IMG/VR virus record: IMGVR_UViG_3300029928_000020
Location: 1 to 42,647 of that record
Length of the DNA: 42,647 nucleotides
Reading direction: 5' to 3' (one strand)
From: a virus
Of this stretch, positions 23,284 to 28,601 are shown piece by piece; within the stretch, counting starts at the first letter, position 1, and every line of letters begins with the position of its first letter. Position numbers and translations under genes: made by a program. A model generated the notes under the pieces. The model saw nothing but the letters and a program-made list of their open reading frames with translations, had not been told where the DNA came from and searched no databases.

Positions 23284-24519
23284 TTATATGATCCATTTAC
23301 TGCCGATGATGTGTTTTTCCAGCCCGTAGCGCATTGCGTCCATCAGGTGGTTAAAGTCGTCGATGGGAACGTTGAGCGCGTTCCCGAACTTGTCCTTGTC
23401 CCACGTGTAATTGCTGATCTCCGTCACGAAATTCACGCATTGCGGGTGGATAATGATCTCCAAGTCCTGAATCCATTGGATGCCGTTCTGGATGCTGTCC
23501 TTGCCCTTTTTGGCGGCCTGCGCCCGGATGCCAAGGCTGACCAGCTCGTCAATGCTTTTCGGCTCCGCGCTGTCCGCCGTGATCCGCTCCTTGCCGTAGC
23601 CCATAGACTGAATGGTCTCGGCAATGCGGCGGTTGCTCATGCCCCTTTGGTACATTTCGTCGAACACGTACAGGCGCTTGTTGTCCTTGTCCAGAAGGCC
23701 GCAGAACAGCGCCGTGGGGTCGTTGGTGTAGCCAAAGTCGAGGCCGAAGCAGCTGACCACGCCGGGCAGCCTGCGCACCGTGTCAAGGTCGAAGCGCTCT
23801 TCCCGCCATCGCTCATACACAAGGCCGTCCACAATGCCCCAATTCCCTTCCCCGGCCACGGAATAGCGGCGGGGATTGCGCACCCGCATATCCTCAAAGA
23901 TTCGCAGGTCGTCCGGGGTCAGCCATTCGTTGCACTGGTAGGTGGTGGTCAGGGCCAGTTTGTTGTCGTCGTTGGGCGGGTCAAAGAAGCGCTTCTTGAT
24001 CCACGTCTTTTCCGACCACGGATTGAGCAAAATAAAAATCCGCTTGAAGTACCCGGCAGGCACTTCGCCACGGATGGATTCGTCGATCATGTCAAAGTCG
24101 GATTCCTTGGTGATCTCGTAGGCTTCCTCAAAGACCGCCCAGCACAGCACCCCTTTGGGCACGGAAATGGAGGTCAGTTTCAGCGGGTCGTCGCAGCCGC
24201 GAAACAAAATGCGCTGGCCGGTGGGCCGGTACTCGATTTCCAGCGGGGACAGGCGGCAGGTGAACCACCTGTCCAGCCCAAGCCGGTGAATGGCCCACTT
24301 GCAATCCGAATAGCAGGAATCTTTCAGGGTTCTTTCTGTTTTGCGGATGTAAATGGCGTTGGCCTCCGGGTACTGGATCAGATGGGAAATGATCCATAGG
24401 GCGGCGGTCTTGGACTTTTTACTGGCTCGGCTGCCCTTGCAGGCCACATAGCGCCCCCGGAAGTTCCAGAAGTCCGCGTACCCCTTGCCGACGACGGTTT
24501 GAAGAGATACCTCAGGCAT
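23284..24519 (-). CDS. terL: Terminase large subunit (PBSX/Terminase_3 type)
   Basis: GYADFWNFRGRYVACKGSRASKKSKTAA (Walker A-like), LCWAVFEEAYE (Walker B); C-terminal nuclease half; overlaps terS. Confidence 0.9.
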   Translation of the reverse strand: MPEVSLQTVVGKGYADFWNFRGRYVACKGSRASKKSKTAALWIISHLIQYPEANAIYIRKTERTLKDSCYSDCKWAIHRLGLDRWFTCRLSPLEIEYRPTGQRILFRGCDDPLKLTSISVPKGVLCWAVFEEAYEITKESDFDMIDESIRGEVPAGYFKRIFILLNPWSEKTWIKKRFFDPPNDDNKLALTTTYQCNEWLTPDDLRIFEDMRVRNPRRYSVAGEGNWGIVDGLVYERWREERFDLDTVRRLPGVVSCFGLDFGYTNDPTALFCGLLDKDNKRLYVFDEMYQRGMSNRRIAETIQSMGYGKERITADSAEPKSIDELVSLGIRAQAAKKGKDSIQNGIQWIQDLEIIIHPQCVNFVTEISNYTWDKDKFGNALNVPIDDFNHLMDAMRYGLEKHIIGSKWII

Positions 24520-24952
24520 TCACATCATCCTTTAGCACCAGCGGGGACATATCAACGTCGGCCTCCACCTTGTCCGTATAAAGCCCGTAGCGCTTGCCCA
24601 GCAATTCCGCAGCTTTCAGCCGTTCCTTTTCGTCCGGGGCCTTTTGGATGGCGCGGGCCTCGGAACAGCCGTCCCCGGTGCCCTCCACCACCACGATCTC
24701 CGCGACGGACTGCCCGCGCATGACCGCCGTCAGGTATTTCAACACTTCGTCCTGATCCGCGATCAGTTCTTTTTCCTTCTCCGCCATTCTTTTTTGGAGA
24801 AAGTCCTTAATTGTAGTAATTTGTAGTAACTTGCTTGCGTTGGTATTGGCATAATGGGGCGAGTACCCCGCCCGGATCGCGGCCTGTGTCGCGTTCAGGT
24901 CGATCAGGTATTCGTCACAAAAGCGCTGCTGTTTCGCCGTCATTTTCGCCAT
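24512..24952 (-). CDS. terS: Terminase small subunit (Terminase_2 type)
   Basis: MAKMTAKQQRFCDEYLIDLNATQAAIRAGYSPHYANTNASKLL is the canonical N-terminal HTH. Confidence 0.9.
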   Translation of the reverse strand: MAKMTAKQQRFCDEYLIDLNATQAAIRAGYSPHYANTNASKLLQITTIKDFLQKRMAEKEKELIADQDEVLKYLTAVMRGQSVAEIVVVEGTGDGCSEARAIQKAPDEKERLKAAELLGKRYGLYTDKVEADVDMSPLVLKDDVNA

Positions 24953-24970
24953 CCCGCAACACCTCCTTTG

Positions 24971-25183
24971 TTAAATCGTGCTTTCCTCCGGGTAGTCCGG
25001 CACTTGGCGTTCCAGCTCCGCATACAGGGCCTTGACAACGGTCACGTTGTATGCGTCGCTGGGTTCTCCCTCCACGCCGATCAGCTCACGCTTTTTAAGC
25101 GTCCAGCCGTCGGAAAGAAGGGCGTTTACTTCTGCGTCAAATTCGTTCAGCTTATAAACGGCTCTTAAGACGGTTCGAATCAC
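24971..25183 (-). CDS. Small DUF1737-like protein (70 aa)
   Basis: GTG start after a GGGAGGTGA RBS; GTGA overlap with the ATPase-GNAT stop; LNEFDAEVNALLSDGWTL pattern. Confidence 0.6.
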   Translation of the reverse strand: MIRTVLRAVYKLNEFDAEVNALLSDGWTLKKRELIGVEGEPSDAYNVTVVKALYAELERQVPDYPEESTI

Positions 25184-26322
25184 GGGGTATCACCTCCCGT
25201 GAACTTGAATCCCTGCACGGCCCGGAAATGGCCGCCGAAGCCGCCTCCGATATGCTCCCGCCCTTTCCGCCTTGCGGAACGCTCGTGGGAAGCAATGCTT
25301 TTGGTTTTGTTGTCCCCGTACAGCTTGGCGGACACCTGCTCCCATTTGGGGGAGCGGCGAAGGGCCGCGCACAGCTGCGGGTGGGACGTGTGGAAGTAGG
25401 TGGGCAGCTTCCTGCCGCGCCTGCCGTTCCCGTCCAGATGGTATTGGGCGATAGCGTCAAGGAATCTGGTTCCAACGCCCGCCCCCTGCCATTCCGGCAT
25501 GGTCACAAGGCGAGTGGCCCGGTAGCCGCCCACGTGGAACCACGGGGAAACCGCCAAATGGCAGGCCAGCTCGCCGTTTACCGTTCCCACAAAGTATTCC
25601 GCCGCAATGGGGCGGGGCAGGCTCAAATAATAATGCGGCTCAAAATGTCGCCAGTAACTTCCGTTGACCTTCCGAATTTCCAGCTCGATCTTGGGCCGCT
25701 GCCGGGGACAGCCTCTTTCGAAAGTCTTTGCCCCGGTATCAAGCACCCAATCCGGCTGTAGCCAGTCCACCACGTCATAATGAGGGGTGAGCAGCACGAC
25801 CCTGCCGGACGGGTTTTCCCGCCTCCACGCCTTTTGGAAAGCCTGTGCGCCGATCTTGGCGATCTGGCGGTCTACCACGGAGGTAAACTCATCCACCACC
25901 GCCGTTTCCGGCCTTGTGCAGATCAGGCGGGCCAGCCCTGCGCGGAACTGCTCCCCATTGGACAGCACCCTATACGGCCTAAGCCACGCTGGCACGTCCC
26001 CAAGGCCCACGGAAGCCAGCATCCCGGTCACAAGGTTAAAGTCCCCGTTCGGCGCTATATCGTCCACAATGGGCCGGTCGTCGTGCCAGCCGGAGGCCAT
26101 GTCCGTGATCCCTGTTCCGCCGAAGAGCTGCTTTCCGATGGACGTTTTTCCAGAGCCGGAAGGGCCGACCACCACGCCGATGCTCCAATCGCCGGAAAGG
26201 TCAACGCCGTCAATGGTCAGGTCGAAGTTGCAGCCGCTTTCCGCGTTGAACAGGCTTTTCACCCGTGCGGCGCGGTAGGAATTAAAATCGCTGACGCGGT
26301 GGTGTACTTCGATAGTCGTCAT
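25180..26322 (-). CDS. ABC-type ATPase fused to a GNAT acetyltransferase-like domain (380 aa)
   Basis: Walker A GPSGSGKTS, signature LSNGEQFR, Walker B VVDEFTSVVD, H-loop LLTPHYD; C-term ...TMPEWQGAGVGTRFLDAI (GNAT motif A). Confidence 0.85.
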   Translation of the reverse strand: MTTIEVHHRVSDFNSYRAARVKSLFNAESGCNFDLTIDGVDLSGDWSIGVVVGPSGSGKTSIGKQLFGGTGITDMASGWHDDRPIVDDIAPNGDFNLVTGMLASVGLGDVPAWLRPYRVLSNGEQFRAGLARLICTRPETAVVDEFTSVVDRQIAKIGAQAFQKAWRRENPSGRVVLLTPHYDVVDWLQPDWVLDTGAKTFERGCPRQRPKIELEIRKVNGSYWRHFEPHYYLSLPRPIAAEYFVGTVNGELACHLAVSPWFHVGGYRATRLVTMPEWQGAGVGTRFLDAIAQYHLDGNGRRGRKLPTYFHTSHPQLCAALRRSPKWEQVSAKLYGDNKTKSIASHERSARRKGREHIGGGFGGHFRAVQGFKFTGGDTP

Positions 26323-26449
26323 ACGGCCACCACCTTCAAGCGGTATCCTTCCGTTTTCAGCTTTTCGTATGTATGTTCTTGGTCTTCTTCATCCCTACAA
26401 ATCACGACCACCGCATACTGTGATTTGTAGGTAAAGCCTTTTTTGTCAT
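26319..26449 (-). CDS. Small ORF needing a -1 shift at A_AAA_AAG (or a homopolymer correction): MTKK/GFTYKSQYAVVVICRDEEDQEHTYEKLKTEGYRLKVVAV
   Basis: AGGTGG RBS 7 nt before ATG 26449; zero frame stops after 15 aa; the -1 frame runs to TGA 26319-21, which overlaps the ATG of the ATPase-GNAT gene (ATGA). Confidence 0.45.
26438..26444 (-). promoter_or_regulatory. A_AAA_AAG slippery heptamer (dnaX-type -1 frameshift motif)
   Basis: Minus strand ATG AC[A AAA AAG] GCT; the heptamer is in the correct zero-frame register. Confidence 0.45.
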
Positions 26450-26516
26450 ATTCTCGCCACCTTTGTCTTGTTTCTCTCCAAACCCCCGCCAGCCGGAGAA
26501 TATCCCACGGGCAACG

Positions 26517-26545
26517 AAAAAAGGCTGCCCCCAAGCAAAACAGCC
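26517..26545 (-). terminator. Hairpin + U-tract in the late leader (T3)
   Basis: Minus strand ggctg-ttttgcttgggg-cagcc-TTTTTT, enclosed by an outer gggcaa/ttgccc pairing (26509-14 / 26547-52). Confidence 0.45.
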
Positions 26546-26623
26546 ATTGCCCGCGCCACCGCAAAAAGCCCATAGCGTCGCCCGCCCCGGATGGATAGGG
26601 GAGCTACCGGCCATGAGCGCATG

Positions 26624-26652
26624 AAAAAAGCCCACGGCGACCGCCGCAGGCT
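26624..26652 (-). terminator. Intrinsic terminator in the late leader (T1)
   Basis: Minus strand agcctgcggc-ggtc-gccgtgggct (10 bp including 2 G-U pairs) followed by TTTTT. Confidence 0.6.
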
Positions 26653-26692
26653 ATTGGGAGGAAAGGTCTGTGCCCCTTTCTTCCACGATACT

Positions 26693-26701
26693 ATTATAGC
26701 A
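26693..26701 (-). promoter_or_regulatory. Extended -10 promoter element (TGcTATAAT), candidate late promoter
   Basis: Minus strand TGCTATAAT; no good -35 (CTAAAA), as expected for an activator-dependent promoter; lies just downstream of the sigma-r4-like gene. Confidence 0.5.
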
Positions 26702-26717
26702 CAGAACATAGTCCGTT

Positions 26718-27188
26718 TTAGTCCGCACTTTTAGAAAATTTTTGATAGCTCGTCCAAAAGTGCTGCAAGGCGTTCCCGTGAATCTCGAACATGACCGTCC
26801 GCTCGAACGGAAGCCGCTGCAAAACGCTTTCCCAGCTTCGCCCGTTGATATAGCGCTCCGTCAGGATGGTCTTTTCCCACTCGTCCGGCAGCTGCTCTAT
26901 CAGCCAAAGGCGCACGTTGAGCGCCTCTTCCAGATGGACGATGGTGTTTTGCAGGCGTTTTTCCACGGTGACGGCCTTCACGGCGGCGTTTGCCAAACTG
27001 TCATGATTTCCGCTTCCGCTGACGTGTTCATCGGTCAGGTTGCTGGTGGTGCCGGTGGCTTTCTCCCGGATCGCTTCCAGTTCTTCCCGCAGGTCGTCCC
27101 GCCGGATTTTCATGGCCATGTATCGGTTCAGGTAGATCATGGCCGGATGTTTGGGCTTTTTACGTTTTGTCTGCTGTTCTTCTTTCAA
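26718..27188 (-). CDS. Late transcription regulator, sigma-70 region-4-like (ArpU/RinA/DUF1492-like)
   Basis: C-term LPDEWEKTILTERYINGRSWESVLQRLPFERTVMFEIHGNAL (r4-type HTH); TTG start after a GGAGG RBS (alternative ATG 27140); last gene before the packaging region. Confidence 0.65.
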   Translation of the reverse strand: MKEEQQTKRKKPKHPAMIYLNRYMAMKIRRDDLREELEAIREKATGTTSNLTDEHVSGSGNHDSLANAAVKAVTVEKRLQNTIVHLEEALNVRLWLIEQLPDEWEKTILTERYINGRSWESVLQRLPFERTVMFEIHGNALQHFWTSYQKFSKSAD

Positions 27189-27191
27189 GGG

Positions 27192-27425
27192 TCATTCCTC
27201 CGATTCCACCGTCCCGCCGGGGACAAGCTCGTAATAGTCGATCTCTTCGTCGGTCAAAGGCTCCGTATAGTCTGCAAAGCCCCACATAGGCCGGGCATAT
27301 CCCGCAATGTGGACATGCTCGGCAAGGGCCGCGTACAGGCTGCGCTTCGGCACCGCTCCGTGGGCCGGGGGACGCATGCGGCAATAGTAGCGGTACAGGG
27401 TATTACTTTTGCTTTCCGTCGTCAT
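27192..27425 (-). CDS. Hypothetical protein (77 aa)
   Basis: MTTESKSNTLYRYYCRMRPPAHGAVPK...; acidic C-terminus; start nested in the upstream Zn-ribbon ORF. Confidence 0.5.
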   Translation of the reverse strand: MTTESKSNTLYRYYCRMRPPAHGAVPKRSLYAALAEHVHIAGYARPMWGFADYTEPLTDEEIDYYELVPGGTVESEE

Positions 27426-27579
27426 TCTTCCGGGCCTCCTCTTTCTCACAGATGATCGTCTCGATGGTGACAAAACGATGATATTTGTTTTTCAGGCACT
27501 TTCTGTACCGGGTCACGGTGTTTTCGCCCGGCTCTGTCCTGTATACAGCCGTTTTTTCTCCGCAGTAGGGGCAAAGCAT
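27403..27579 (-). CDS. NrdR-like zinc-ribbon protein (58 aa, not in the ORF track)
   Basis: AAGGAG RBS; MLCPYCGEKTAVYRTEPGENTVTRYRKCLKNKYHRFVTIE resembles the NrdR N-terminal Zn ribbon (CxxC...RRRxC...RFTTxE). Confidence 0.5.
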   Translation of the reverse strand: MLCPYCGEKTAVYRTEPGENTVTRYRKCLKNKYHRFVTIETIICEKEEARKNDDGKQK

Positions 27580-27582
27580 CGG

Positions 27583-27792
27583 TCACACGCTCCTTTCGTC
27601 CTCCTTCGGTGGTTCCGGCAGGGGCATCCAGTGGGTGACATTTCCACCGCGCTCCCACGTCCCGTCGCCATAAAATTTGAAGATTTTGATGTACCGCGTG
27701 CCCGGAAATGCAACGCTGTCGATGCAGCACAAGTATACATCTTCTTTTCTTTCCGGCAGCCTGTCTTTAACGCTGATCCAGTCCATGCTCAT
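27583..27792 (-). CDS. DUF551 protein
   Basis: MSMDWISVKDRLPERKEDVYL...THWMPLPEPPKE is the classic DUF551 pattern; ATGA overlap with the upstream stop. Confidence 0.75.
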   Translation of the reverse strand: MSMDWISVKDRLPERKEDVYLCCIDSVAFPGTRYIKIFKFYGDGTWERGGNVTHWMPLPEPPKEDERSV

Positions 27793-28601
27793 TCCTCCCA
27801 CGGAAATTCCTGCCGAAAGTCCTCGTCCATCAGCCCGCGAAGGCTTTCTTTCATAAATACTTTCATACCCGTAATCTGCGCCGCTTCCACAATGTTTTCC
27901 ACCCATTCCCGTTTTGGAACGACCTTGCCTTTGCGATTGCCCGTTTCTGCGCCGACGATCACCCATTCATCTGAGCCAAAAGAGCCAAGTCCAACGTGCA
28001 TGTGTTCTGTCAGCGGCTCAATACTTGTGAACGTGTGGTACTTGATCCCCCCTTGAAAACGCTTTGCTTTTTTGTTGTCCAGTGTACTTCCGAACCACCA
28101 GTTATCATGACACGGAAGAATGCCTGCGCTCGCCATGTTGCAAAGTCTGGCGGGATTCTTGGTCAGGAATAGATACCGATGCTGCGGCGCTTTTTCGCAA
28201 GCATCGAATACCTGATTAATCCATTCGTCCGGCACCCAATCCCCGAACAGGTCAGCCATCGAACACACGAAAATGTTGCGCGGCTTTTTCCATTTTTGCG
28301 GCTCGTCCAGCTTGTAGCGGTGGAAGGTTGGCTCAAATCCGAACGGATACGCCGCATTGGTTATACTTCCATCCTTGTTCTTCTGTTCCCACGGATAGTC
28401 AAGTTCTAGTGGTTTTCCCGTTCCTTTTAGCATCCCACGCGCAATCAGATGCCGTTGGCATTGACATTCTGGGTCATATATTTCCATTGGCCTGAACCGT
28501 TCCGCGATCCTGCGGGCATAACAATATTCGCACCCGTGCAGACACCCTGTAACCGGGTTCCACGAAGCATCCGCCCAATCGATTTTTGTTTTAGCTCCCA
28601 T
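27789..28601 (-). CDS. Phage Gp37/Gp68 family protein (DUF5131)
   Basis: TKIDWADASWNPVTGCLHGCEYCYARRIAERF is the family-defining N-terminus; GGGAGG RBS. Confidence 0.85.
   Translation of the reverse strand: MGAKTKIDWADASWNPVTGCLHGCEYCYARRIAERFRPMEIYDPECQCQRHLIARGMLKGTGKPLELDYPWEQKNKDGSITNAAYPFGFEPTFHRYKLDEPQKWKKPRNIFVCSMADLFGDWVPDEWINQVFDACEKAPQHRYLFLTKNPARLCNMASAGILPCHDNWWFGSTLDNKKAKRFQGGIKYHTFTSIEPLTEHMHVGLGSFGSDEWVIVGAETGNRKGKVVPKREWVENIVEAAQITGMKVFMKESLRGLMDEDFRQEFPWEE

Follow-up and report, generated by a model that had tools for sequence, protein, structure and literature searches.

ATP-driven delivery of a nucleic-acid substrate to an acetyl-CoA site is an established principle of TmcA, which consists of a helicase ATPase of the RecD type, a GNAT domain of the GNAT_acetyltr_2 family and a domain that binds tRNA. 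In phages, ParB-like N-terminal domains (ParB_N) are fused to DNA methyltransferases (phrog_498), often near terminase genes. Mom of phage Mu (PF25680) is a GNAT-fold enzyme which binds acetyl-CoA and modifies DNA; it is toxic and expressed late (PMC7261163). A further family exists as catalogue entries, namely the COG 'ABC-type ATPase fused to a predicted acetyltransferase domain' and PHROG 11143 ('unknown function'), which carry no function and record neither the conserved partners nor the link to Com described below. Searches of the full-text literature returned no description of the system, and the sole mention found of a member concerns gp29 of phage phiE255, which was called a putative ABC transporter of 'undefined role' and for which import or export was speculated (PMC2920897). 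The original prediction, which knew of no function for this architecture, agrees with these findings.

A member of this family is encoded in the window, by which we mean the whole 42,647-nucleotide stretch of viral DNA analysed here, which stems from a gut phage. Its gene is the second of a cassette of three, all on the minus strand: a mini-domain gene, the ABC-GNAT gene encoding 380 aa and orf70, followed directly by terS 18 nt downstream (Table 1). The two 4-nt overlaps on which translational coupling had been proposed are present: ATGA at 26322..26319, where the mini-domain stop TGA (26321..26319) meets the ABC-GNAT start, and GTGA at 25183..25180, where the ABC-GNAT stop meets the GTG of orf70. 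A gene for an ArpU/Alt-type regulator precedes the cassette, upstream of a 270-nt leader, in agreement with the predicted position at the head of the late, packaging operon. No sigma-70 promoter was found in 24400..27400 and no Rfam family in leader and cassette. Formyltransferase, ParB and Com genes were not found elsewhere in the window, nor does it contain a Com-like ORF. A gene with a DarA_C anti-restriction domain lies near the cassette.

Table 1. The cassette and its surroundings in the window.
Feature	Position	Strand	Basis or remark
ArpU/Alt-type late transcription regulator	26718..27188	-	phrog_36 E 8.5e-15; phrog_248 'transcriptional activator' E 1.4e-8
Mini-domain gene	26319..26449	-	PHROG 28816, own domain HMM, conserved adjacency to ABC-GNAT
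A_AAA_AAG heptamer, dnaX-type -1 slippery site	26438..26444	-	two codons past ATG 26449
Candidate frameshift stimulator hairpin	26394..26431	-	perfect 12-bp stem, 26431..26420 pairing with 26405..26394, 14-nt loop
ABC-GNAT ORF, 380 aa	26322..25180	-	ABC nucleotide-binding domain joined to GNAT acyltransferase domain
ABC nucleotide-binding domain, residues 1-212	25687..26322	-	motifs, Pfam, fold
Walker A	26166..26140	-	
Signature LSNGEQFR	25965..25942	-	
Walker B VVDEF	25899..25885	-	
H-loop His181	25782..25780	-	
GNAT acyltransferase domain, residues 213-380, plus stop codon	25180..25686	-	AF2, Foldseek, motif A
GNAT motif A QGAGVG	25488..25471	-	
orf70, 70 aa, GTG start	24971..25183	-	third gene of window sub-lineage
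terS, small terminase subunit	24512..24952	-	Terminase_2 E 1e-36; phrog_51

The fusion of an ABC ATPase to a GNAT-like domain in one 380-aa protein, claimed from the letters of the DNA, was borne out by motifs, by Pfam ABC_tran and by predicted folds. All motifs that had been named are found in the ORF (GPSGSGKTS, residues 53-61; LSNGEQFR, 120-127; VVDEF, 142-146; LTPHYD, 178-183), and EWQGAGVG follows at 277-284. Walker A Lys59, signature Ser121 and Gly123, Walker B Asp144-Glu145 and H-loop His181 are invariant in 219 of 219 non-redundant homologues, and GNAT motif A Q279-G-A-G-V-G284 (Q279, G280, G282 and G284) is kept in 218-219 of the 219. With 26.4 bits, the match to Pfam ABC_tran passes the cut-off of 25; Acetyltransf_7 (18.8 bits, cut-off 27) and Acetyltransf_1 (17.0 bits, cut-off 20.7) both stay below threshold. 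Precomputed PF13508 matches are present in many homologues, and homologue P0272 reaches 27.1 bits. PHROG 11143 is matched almost end to end (E 8.3e-145; residues 3-378 on profile positions 2-352 of 357), which places the window protein in the same family and architecture as the catalogue entries.

The full-length AlphaFold (AF2) model has a mean pLDDT of 84.6. For the N-terminal half, Foldseek lists nucleotide-binding domains (NBDs) such as those of Wzt, MalK, FtsE and PstB as its top PDB matches, at probability 1.0. The C-terminal half modelled alone (AF2) reaches pLDDT 85, and the 50 Foldseek PDB matches listed for it are GNAT enzymes only (probability 1.0, TMq 0.45-0.56). Its structural likeness to RimI, SpeG and GCN5 is to generic protein and small-molecule acetyltransferases. 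The domain also includes a conserved C-terminal tail, GFGGHFRAVQGF. By motifs and NBD fold, the 380-aa protein is a member of the ABC ATPase superfamily with predicted ATPase activity; by fold and motif A, its C-terminal domain belongs to the GNAT acyltransferase superfamily, and acyl transfer is predicted. Motif A (Q/R-x-x-G-x-G/A) forms the loop by which GNAT enzymes hold the pyrophosphate of acyl-CoA, and the fold of the superfamily runs beta1-alpha1-alpha2-beta2-4-alpha3-beta5-alpha4-beta6. Invariant motifs and folds together argue for the catalytic competence of both domains.

Two word-filtered homologue searches returned 6405 and 4928 matches, and an exhaustive search of representatives at 50% identity gave 494 clusters at E<=1e-30. 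The ABC-GNAT family is thus far beyond chance; JGI names its members 'ABC-type ATPase with predicted acetyltransferase domain'. The parallel to TmcA/NAT10 drawn in the original prediction holds as an analogy of logic, an ATP-hydrolysing domain (here predicted) and a GNAT domain sharing one polypeptide in both cases. Membership of that family was rejected: RecD-type helicase, GNAT_acetyltr_2 and tRNA-binding domains are all absent from the Pfam scan at E<=1, and an ABC NBD is here joined to a generic GNAT domain, so that the two architectures are not homologous. Homology to Mom was likewise rejected. The family profile aligned to Mu Mom with an hhalign probability of 0.1, and a viral fold search returned a Mom entry at rank 40 only (E 2e-3), reflecting the shared GNAT fold only.

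Concerning gene order, a census of 224 non-redundant loci (49-83% identity), drawn from viral contigs, from metagenomes and from sequenced genomes, revealed a recurrent module: a 40-aa mini-domain, with or without a preceding ParB-like domain, then ABC-GNAT, then a formyltransferase-like protein. The genomes are those of Clostridia, Bacteroidales, Proteobacteria, Actinobacteria, Spirochaetes, Verrucomicrobia, Planctomycetes and others. The mini-domain adjoins ABC-GNAT upstream in 180 of 188 assessable loci, fused to ParB_N in 79 and alone in 101. A first census of 145 loci included 112 stops of upstream ORFs, and 75 of these shared 4 nt with the start of ABC-GNAT. Single polypeptides of the order ParB_N-mini-ABC-GNAT occur in 8 of the best 150 representative clusters. 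The ParB module matches the N-terminal region of the phrog_498 'DNA methyltransferase' profile (E 1e-24 and 3e-44) and thus is of the kind which phages fuse to DNA-modifying enzymes. The methyltransferase fusions and the module have this type of ParB-like N-domain in common as partner of an enzyme; in the module, however, the enzyme is ABC-GNAT, to which the N-domain is either fused or would be linked non-covalently by way of the 40-aa mini-domain. In the window phage the ParB domain has been lost.

Downstream of ABC-GNAT, a formyltransferase-like gene is found in 150 of 189 loci (about 79%) and orf70 in 17. The window cassette, which had been taken for a self-contained oddity of three genes, is instead a reduced variant of a very common module. 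It represents the minimal form of this module, with the soluble ABC-ATPase::GNAT protein as its putative catalytic core, and appears from the gene-order comparison to be a trimmed minority variant in which only the mini-domain is kept and the formyltransferase is replaced by orf70.

The orf70 family comprises about 703 clusters; the 120 listed are all 70-74 aa long, none with a Pfam hit. In the window a Shine-Dalgarno sequence, GGAGGTGA, lies a few nt upstream of the GTG start, and orf70 follows ABC-GNAT with a 4-nt overlap in five of five contig backgrounds. It is the dedicated third gene of the window sub-lineage, at the position held by the formyltransferase-like gene in most relatives. Descent of orf70 from a formyltransferase was rejected (hhalign probability 0.3 against the Fmt-like family). 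Its designation as DUF1737-like was not upheld: the window protein has no Pfam match and DUF1737 (PF08410) is hit by 2 of 15 family members at E 0.14, a faint resemblance at most. The formyltransferase-like partner has methionyl-tRNA formyltransferase among its best NCBIfam matches, and its closest characterised relatives have Met-tRNA, UDP-Ara4N or GAR rather than DNA as substrate; its catalytic Asn is swapped for Gly, Ile or Val. At one locus (L251) the third gene encodes a C-5 cytosine DNA methylase, with a 4-nt overlap with ABC-GNAT.

The first gene of the cassette seems to have no ordinary start. The ATG at 26449..26447, taken originally as the boundary of the cassette, is preceded by a Shine-Dalgarno sequence and is out of frame with the ORF ending in ATGA (26449..26319 = 131 nt); its own frame stops after 15 codons at 26404..26402. 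The mini-domain frame has no in-frame start nearby, the nearest lying 38 codons upstream, beyond a terminator-like hairpin. The corresponding 84-aa reading from ATG 26573 was judged unlikely: it crosses this hairpin, is rich in Trp and Arg, and shows indels relative to L008 that are not multiples of three. PHROG 28816 matches the last 41 aa of the mini-domain frame only (E 3e-16), an HMM built from the mini-domain matches the window frame at E 1e-20, and the same motif closes the ParB-like proteins which precede ABC-GNAT elsewhere. The small upstream ORF is the detached C-terminal domain of such ParB-like proteins. Searches for a known structure or family of the mini-domain and of orf70 gave nothing significant, with faint beta-alpha-beta matches to VOC/glyoxalase-type modules and to a designed protein.

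Frameshift sites of the dnaX type combine an X_XXY_YYZ heptamer in the zero frame, a spacer of 5-9 nt and a stable structure downstream. The window contains such a heptamer at 26444..26438, followed after 6 nt by a perfect 12-bp stem, so that a dnaX-type -1 site is proposed here. The heptamer A_AAA_AAG is kept in all members of the window lineage across three different Shine-Dalgarno contexts. The candidate hairpin, an inverted repeat of 100% complementarity (MFE -19.4 kcal/mol, z -2.5), is absent from relatives with an ordinary in-frame start. Its sequences in relatives are too similar for covariation. The mini-domain product made through the proposed -1 shift is predicted to be MTKKGFTYKSQYAVVVICRDEEDQEHTYEKLKTEGYRLKVVAV (43 aa). 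Translation of the mini-domain gene is possibly gated in this way in the lineage of the window phage.

A different form of control is suggested for other lineages. In 29 loci, all with the mini-domain alone, a Com zinc ribbon (PF10122; phrog_13819 'gpCom control of modification') overlaps the start of the mini-domain gene, as com overlaps mom in phage Mu, whose geometry is hereby reproduced. The Mu-like phage phiE255 (Bcepmuvirus) is one of the 29. Several of the 29 cassettes are the last genes of contigs of 33-39 kb or come behind the tail genes, again as mom does in Mu. Mom and ABC-GNAT also have in common a GNAT-fold catalytic domain with acyl-CoA binding features as well as late expression. 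Unlike Mom, the module adds an ABC ATPase, a mini-domain or ParB partner and usually a formyltransferase-like subunit, and unlike the Mom system the window phage is devoid of Com.

Modification of DNA had been among the functions originally suggested, and it is the option which the comparative evidence favours. We tentatively regard the cassette, by analogy and at somewhat less than even confidence, as a late, tightly controlled, ATP-dependent acyl-transfer module that acts on phage DNA as an analogue of Mom. Upon ATP binding two NBDs would close head-to-tail and thereby bring two GNAT domains onto a nucleic-acid substrate. Between replication and packaging, the GNAT domains would use an acyl-CoA to acylate phage DNA or something attached to the DNA, and such acylation would confer Mom-like protection from host restriction. 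The 40-aa beta-alpha-beta mini-domain would dock onto ABC-GNAT, and in many phages a ParB-like protein ending in this domain would tether ABC-GNAT to DNA; in the window phage the docking domain alone would be left. An exchangeable third subunit, formyltransferase-like, orf70 or in one lineage a C5 DNA methylase, may complete or tune the chemistry. Expression would be confined to the late phase, with translation of the first gene as the gated step; the gate would be Com in Mu-like phages and possibly the -1 frameshift in the window lineage.

Observations from gene contexts point to DNA as the target, among them the kind of ParB domain, which is fused to DNA methyltransferases elsewhere, the link to Com, and the C5 methylase as third gene in L251. 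The place of the cassette in siphophages, first in the late operon and flanked by an ArpU/Alt regulator and terS, also speaks for the Mom-like reading. Since the window phage has no ParB domain, Com or formyltransferase, the strongest contextual arguments come from relatives at 49-73% identity and not from this phage. Several points speak against the Mom-like reading. Any late function that is toxic would go well with Com control and late timing, the GNAT likeness is generic, the relatives of the formyltransferase have substrates other than DNA, and there is no sequence relationship to Mom. A wider proposal is rather doubtful when taken as a whole: the module would be an unrecognised phage DNA hypermodification machine of many phyla, in which ATP-driven clamping N-acylates a base in replicated phage DNA, most lineages add formylation, Mom has repeatedly been replaced under Com, and the first gene is frameshift-gated in the window lineage.

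Among the alternatives, a function in anti-defence or host takeover is unlikely and yet the one that survives best. The target acetylated by ABC-GNAT would then be a defence protein of the host, a signalling nucleotide or polyamines, and the ABC domain would serve as a switch or clamp on this target, driven by ATP. The structural proximity of the GNAT domain to the protein and polyamine acetyltransferases GCN5, RimI and SpeG would fit, as would the behaviour of the cassette as a mobile unit across otherwise unrelated phage backbones and the DarA_C gene nearby in the window. However, the near-universal ParB or mini-domain partner and its fusions, the formyltransferase partner and the DNA methylase replacing the third gene are left unexplained. 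Membership of a described defence system was rejected, the PADLOC matches to mad3, AriA and mad8 being limited to short Walker A or ABC-signature stretches.

Even less probable, in our estimate, is a target in RNA or translation. The ATPase-GNAT protein would then acetylate a tRNA, an aminoacyl-tRNA or a ribosomal component in the manner of TmcA or of AtaT/RimI, and the formyltransferase-like partner would act on the same aminoacyl-tRNA or RNA. An ATPase combined with a GNAT domain is the TmcA design, RimI is among the top structural matches of the GNAT domain, and methionyl-tRNA formyltransferase is among the best NCBIfam matches of the partner. Moreover, streptococcal phages carry split ABC and GNAT genes followed by a gene for an ASCH domain protein, ASCH being an RNA-binding or N4-acylcytosine amidohydrolase fold; among the phages examined, however, this gene occurs only in the streptococcal ones. 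The absence of TmcA-kind domains from the Pfam matches, the association with Com and the DNA C5 methylase of L251 argue against RNA. So does the partner which recurs beside ABC-GNAT or fused to it, since this is a DNA-binding, ParB-like module such as is fused to DNA methyltransferases.

An accessory role in packaging, in which a complex of ParB-like protein and ABC ATPase would help the terminase to recognise or process pac or cos DNA, is improbable. ParB-like 'nuclease' domain proteins are common next to terminases. In the window, Gordonia, Streptococcus, Leptospira and Lactococcus phages the cassette lies upstream of terS/terL, adjacent or a few genes off. In phiE255, the Porphyromonas phages and the Com-associated loci, however, it follows the tail genes or sits at the contig end, and the stretches of 9 kb and 5.8 kb that were inspected carry no annotated terminase gene. 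Nonlabens phage P12024S has the cassette among replication genes. At least three terminase types accompany it (Terminase_3, Terminase_6N and the single 'terminase' of Gordonia), and it is not obvious what an intact acyl-CoA motif would do in packaging. The reading as an ABC transporter subunit or lysogenic-conversion moron, met in many database annotations and resting on the ABC_tran score, on homologue records named 'ABC transporter' and on the speculation about phiE255 (PMC2920897), is very remote and effectively refuted by the gene neighbourhoods, with no membrane permease conserved beside ABC-GNAT among the 224 loci, ParB/mini-domain, formyltransferase-like protein and orf70 as conserved neighbours, an ABC domain fused to GNAT, and cassettes placed in late operons or under Com.

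Among phage proteins that have no function assigned, ABC-GNAT is one of the more widely distributed and better conserved families, with 55-78% identity across phyla. Carriers of the module include temperate phages from gut Clostridia and Bacteroidales and from oral Porphyromonas, Streptococcus pyogenes prophages, and also dairy lactococcal phages, actinophages and Mu-like phages of Burkholderia. Gordonia phages Axumite and Fresco, Burkholderia phiE255, Lactococcus P335 and, upon induction, S. pyogenes prophage 315.4 are carriers that can be cultured. If the module modifies DNA, it would constitute a new enzymatic route, an ABC-ATPase-coupled GNAT acting usually with a folate-type transferase. 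This would bear on the evasion of restriction and CRISPR, on the reading of nanopore and SMRT signals in viromes, on the choice of phages for therapy and dairy use, and on enzyme discovery. Even with another target, the comparative data supply concrete partners, controls and model phages for the ABC-GNAT family.

The 380-aa protein of the window joins a complete ABC ATPase to a GNAT domain. The original prediction of this fusion is correct, since domain matches, structural models and invariant motifs all agree with it. The protein passes the Pfam ABC_tran model (26.4 bits, threshold 25) and scores below the thresholds of the Pfam GNAT models; NCBIfam and PDB sequence searches returned ABC NBDs only (1e-7 to 1e-5). 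A full-length AlphaFold model (49 homologues, pLDDT 84.6) matched transporter-type NBDs in the PDB. The C-terminal 176 residues, modelled alone at pLDDT 85, matched GNAT enzymes only among the 50 PDB matches listed, all with probability 1.0, including N-acetylglutamate synthase, GCN5, SpeG and RimI. In 219 full-length, non-redundant homologues the Walker A lysine, the signature Ser/Gly, the Walker B Asp-Glu and the H-loop His are invariant or nearly so, as is GNAT motif A (Q-G-x-G-x-G). Both halves appear capable of catalysis. In Streptococcus and Lactococcus phages the two halves are encoded by separate, adjacent genes.

The protein family is large. Thousands of homologues came back from each of two word-filtered searches, and an exhaustive search of 50%-identity representatives gave 494 clusters at E<=1e-30. 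The nearest genomic relatives are mostly Clostridia MAGs. A homologue is encoded in 61 deposited phage genomes, with hosts including Gordonia, Streptococcus, Porphyromonas, Burkholderia (phiE255), Pseudomonas, Leptospira, Lactococcus (P335), Oenococcus and Arthrobacter, and also in T4-like Aeromonas phages. Record annotations range from "hypothetical" to "ABC transporter"; some members bear the JGI name "ABC-type ATPase with predicted acetyltransferase domain", a COG name. PHROG 11143, which matches the protein end to end (E 8e-145), is of "unknown function". The architecture and its partners were not found described in the literature, the only discussion of a member that came up being that of phiE255 gp29, termed a putative ABC transporter of undefined role (PMC2920897). 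The architecture was thus rightly said to lack an assigned function; the system called undescribed is indeed uncharacterised, but its protein family is already catalogued.

Within the window (see table), the overlaps originally described are present: the ABC-GNAT ATG shares bases with the TGA of the upstream frame (ATGA, 26322..26319), and its own TGA with the GTG of orf70 (GTGA, 25183..25180), which is preceded by GGAGGTGA. The cassette does lie directly upstream of terS (Terminase_2, E 1e-36), which begins 18 nt 3' of orf70 and whose end is overlapped by terL. The leader between an ArpU/Alt-type regulator and the cassette carries two intrinsic-terminator-like hairpins, each followed by a T-run, and searches in it for Rfam families and sigma-70-like promoters came back empty. 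This leader may serve to control the late operon, for example by antitermination. The window also encodes an SPP1-type portal and a MuF-like head protein, and it matches MT835521, an unannotated 42.5-kb human faecal phage, at 95.5% identity over 82% of the 10 kb around the cassette. Just upstream of the regulator, a 93-aa protein carries DarA_C ("defence against restriction A", E 5e-14), a possible second anti-restriction function close to the cassette. The window further encodes a protein of the DUF5131 (Gp37/Gp68) family (E 1e-43) that has a CxxxCxxC motif close to its N-terminus, with DUF551 and NrdR-like zinc-ribbon ORFs flanking it. Close relatives carry inserted homing-endonuclease genes right behind the cassette, separating terS from terL; one case is GIY-YIG/NUMOD3, another HNH_3/NUMOD4. 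The window has no such insertion there.

Coordinates of the cassette, its surroundings and related loci
Feature	Record	Coordinates	Strand	Remarks
DUF5131 gene	window	28601..27789	minus	
DarA_C gene	window	27473..27192	minus	
ArpU/Alt-type regulator	window	27188..26718	minus	phrog_36, E 8.5e-15
Non-coding leader	window	26717..26450	minus	270 nt
Terminator-like hairpins	window	26652..26629, 26545..26523	minus	
Candidate slippery heptamer A_AAA_AAG	window	26444..26438	minus	zero frame
Perfect 12-bp stem	window	26431..26420 with 26405..26394	minus	14-nt loop; 6 nt past heptamer; -19.4 kcal/mol, z -2.5
ABC-GNAT ORF	window	26322..25180	minus	380 aa
orf70	window	25183..24971	minus	70 aa, GTG start
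Formyltransferase-like partner (examples)	loci L001, L003, L004	5113-5727, 1805-2452, 5122-5595		
Split ABC and GNAT genes	loci L002, L006, L176	3980-5049, 3827-4896, 3001-4055		
Homing-endonuclease genes	loci L259/L260, L261	3637-4293, 3687-4193		

A gene-neighbourhood census, proposed along with the original prediction, covered 224 non-redundant loci from viral contigs, metagenomes, genomes and annotated phages, whose neighbours were scored with profiles made in this analysis; it uncovered a conserved module extending beyond the window's three genes. Its first element is a 40-aa mini-domain ([FY]xYxxQYGVIVxCxDExEQxxVYxxLxxxGYxxKVVxV). In 180 of the 188 loci that could be assessed, its end abuts or overlaps the start of ABC-GNAT. 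In 79 of these 180 it forms the C-terminus of a ParB-like protein of 170-240 aa; in the other 101, the window's type, it stands alone as an ORF of 40-60 aa. One profile, PHROG 28816, independently recognises both the small ORF of the window and the C-terminal 36 residues of the ParB-like protein in Gordonia, and eight representative clusters unite ParB_N, mini-domain, ABC and GNAT in a single polypeptide. The ATGA overlap recurs elsewhere: a first census of 145 loci had 112 stops of upstream ORFs, 75 of which share 4 nt with the start of ABC-GNAT.

The third gene is usually a Formyl_trans_N protein (PF00551, phrog_9240), found downstream of ABC-GNAT in 150 of 189 loci; a Gordonia gene annotated "tRNA-methyltransferase" belongs to this family. 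The family retains the HPSLLPxxRG motif along with the His and Asp of catalysis, but 142 of 151 sequences have Gly, Ile or Val at the position of the catalytic Asn (PurN Asn106), a change that suggests an altered chemistry. The orf70 family takes this position in 17 loci, and the remainder have nothing conserved there, apart from exceptions such as locus L251 (a Kiritimatiellia MAG). There, the gene found where the formyltransferase-like one usually lies encodes a C-5 cytosine DNA methylase (PF00145, E 4e-23) and has a 4-nt overlap with the ABC-GNAT stop. Profile comparison ruled out orf70 as a relative of the formyltransferase family, and its supposed DUF1737 likeness amounts to a marginal resemblance. 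The orf70 family comprises about 703 clusters, of which the 120 listed have members of 70-74 aa lacking a Pfam match. In contigs that differ in terminase and flanks, orf70 always comes right after ABC-GNAT and overlaps it by 4 nt, which marks it as a dedicated partner in this sub-lineage. A window-wide profile search found no formyltransferase-like, ParB-like or Com-like gene; by its gene content, the window cassette is a reduced form of the three-part module.

Translation of the window's mini-domain gene may involve a programmed -1 frameshift. Its sole start preceded by a Shine-Dalgarno sequence (AAGGTGG, then a gap of 7 nt) is the ATG at 26449, from which the frame (ATG ACA AAA AAG GCT...) stops after 15 codons; the conserved mini-domain lies in the -1 frame, which has no start close by. 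A_AAA_AAG is a classical dnaX-type slippery heptamer, and a stem follows it. A -1 slip would give a product of 43 aa, MTKKGFTYKSQY...KVVAV, that aligns with the ordinary MGFSYKEQY... products of relatives. The arrangement persists, in three different Shine-Dalgarno contexts, in about 10 contigs from two sub-lineages, one at 98-99% and one at 83% protein identity. It is limited to the window's lineage: relatives at 76-82% identity start plainly in frame and have neither the A6G run nor complementary arms. We regard the frameshift as a well-motivated hypothesis only, because the heptamer by itself is not rare (21 copies in the window) and covariation lends the stem no support, the sequences compared being too similar.

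What the cassette does is suggested by its associations. The ParB-like module matches phrog_498 "DNA methyltransferase" over the N-terminal region of that profile (E 1e-24 and 3e-44), and by sequence the module is of the type that phages attach to DNA-modifying enzymes. A Com zinc ribbon (PF10122; phrog_13819 "gpCom control of modification") occurs in 29 loci; in every one the mini-domain stands alone, and one of them is the Bcepmuvirus phiE255. Its end lies 60-224 nt before ABC-GNAT, at a distance of mostly 100-150 nt. When the mini-domain ORF is called from its first start codon, Com overlaps this ORF in 28 of the 29. The com and mom genes of phage Mu overlap in this way. Com control in Mu-like phages and the candidate frameshift are parallel in that both would specially gate translation of the cassette's first gene. 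Mom has a GNAT fold, binds acetyl-CoA, is toxic and late-expressed, and modifies DNA, shielding Mu from restriction (PMC7261163). Siphophages have the cassette at the head of the late operon, between late activator and terS; in phiE255 and Porphyromonas phages it lies behind tail genes, and in several viral contigs of 33-39 kb at the extreme end, the place of mom in Mu.

Because the ParB module, the Com association, the L251 methylase and the late-operon position point the same way together, our tentative preference is for a modification of phage DNA that takes place late and under tight control. DNA would then accept an acyl group donated by acyl-CoA, with ATP-driven NBD dimerisation serving as a clamp and the mini-domain docking; the phage would gain anti-restriction. 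Against DNA modification stand the missing sequence relationship between Mom and the ABC-GNAT family, the generic nature of the GNAT domain, and a formyltransferase-like partner nearest to Fmt, ArnA and PurN. An anti-defence role exerted on a protein or small molecule is a possible, less likely alternative. RNA or aminoacyl-tRNA as the target is a still slimmer prospect, kept alive by the partner's resemblance to Fmt and by an ASCH-domain gene that in the two Streptococcus phages follows the split ABC and GNAT genes and precedes terS. An accessory role in packaging, suggested by the adjoining terS, is improbable, as the cassette elsewhere lies behind tail genes or at contig ends, sits among replication genes in Nonlabens, and neighbours terminases of varying type. 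The ABC-transporter annotation is untenable, no permease being conserved beside ABC-GNAT.

The parallel drawn with TmcA/NAT10 extends no further than the shared design of ATPase plus GNAT. The 380-aa protein may function in the manner of an ATP-coupled nucleic-acid acyltransferase. Membership of that family is ruled out: the ATPase is of a different superfamily, and a Pfam scan detected no TmcA-defining domain types. The cassette as first observed is genuine and has biological significance, and the interpretation attached to it is correct in part. Three things appear to be new: that mini-domain/ParB, ABC-GNAT and formyltransferase or orf70 form a conserved module, that the regulation and position of this module resemble those of Mom, and that its first gene may be translated through a frameshift. 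We rate the system as belonging with late phage GNAT-based modification modules and ATPase-coupled acyltransferases.
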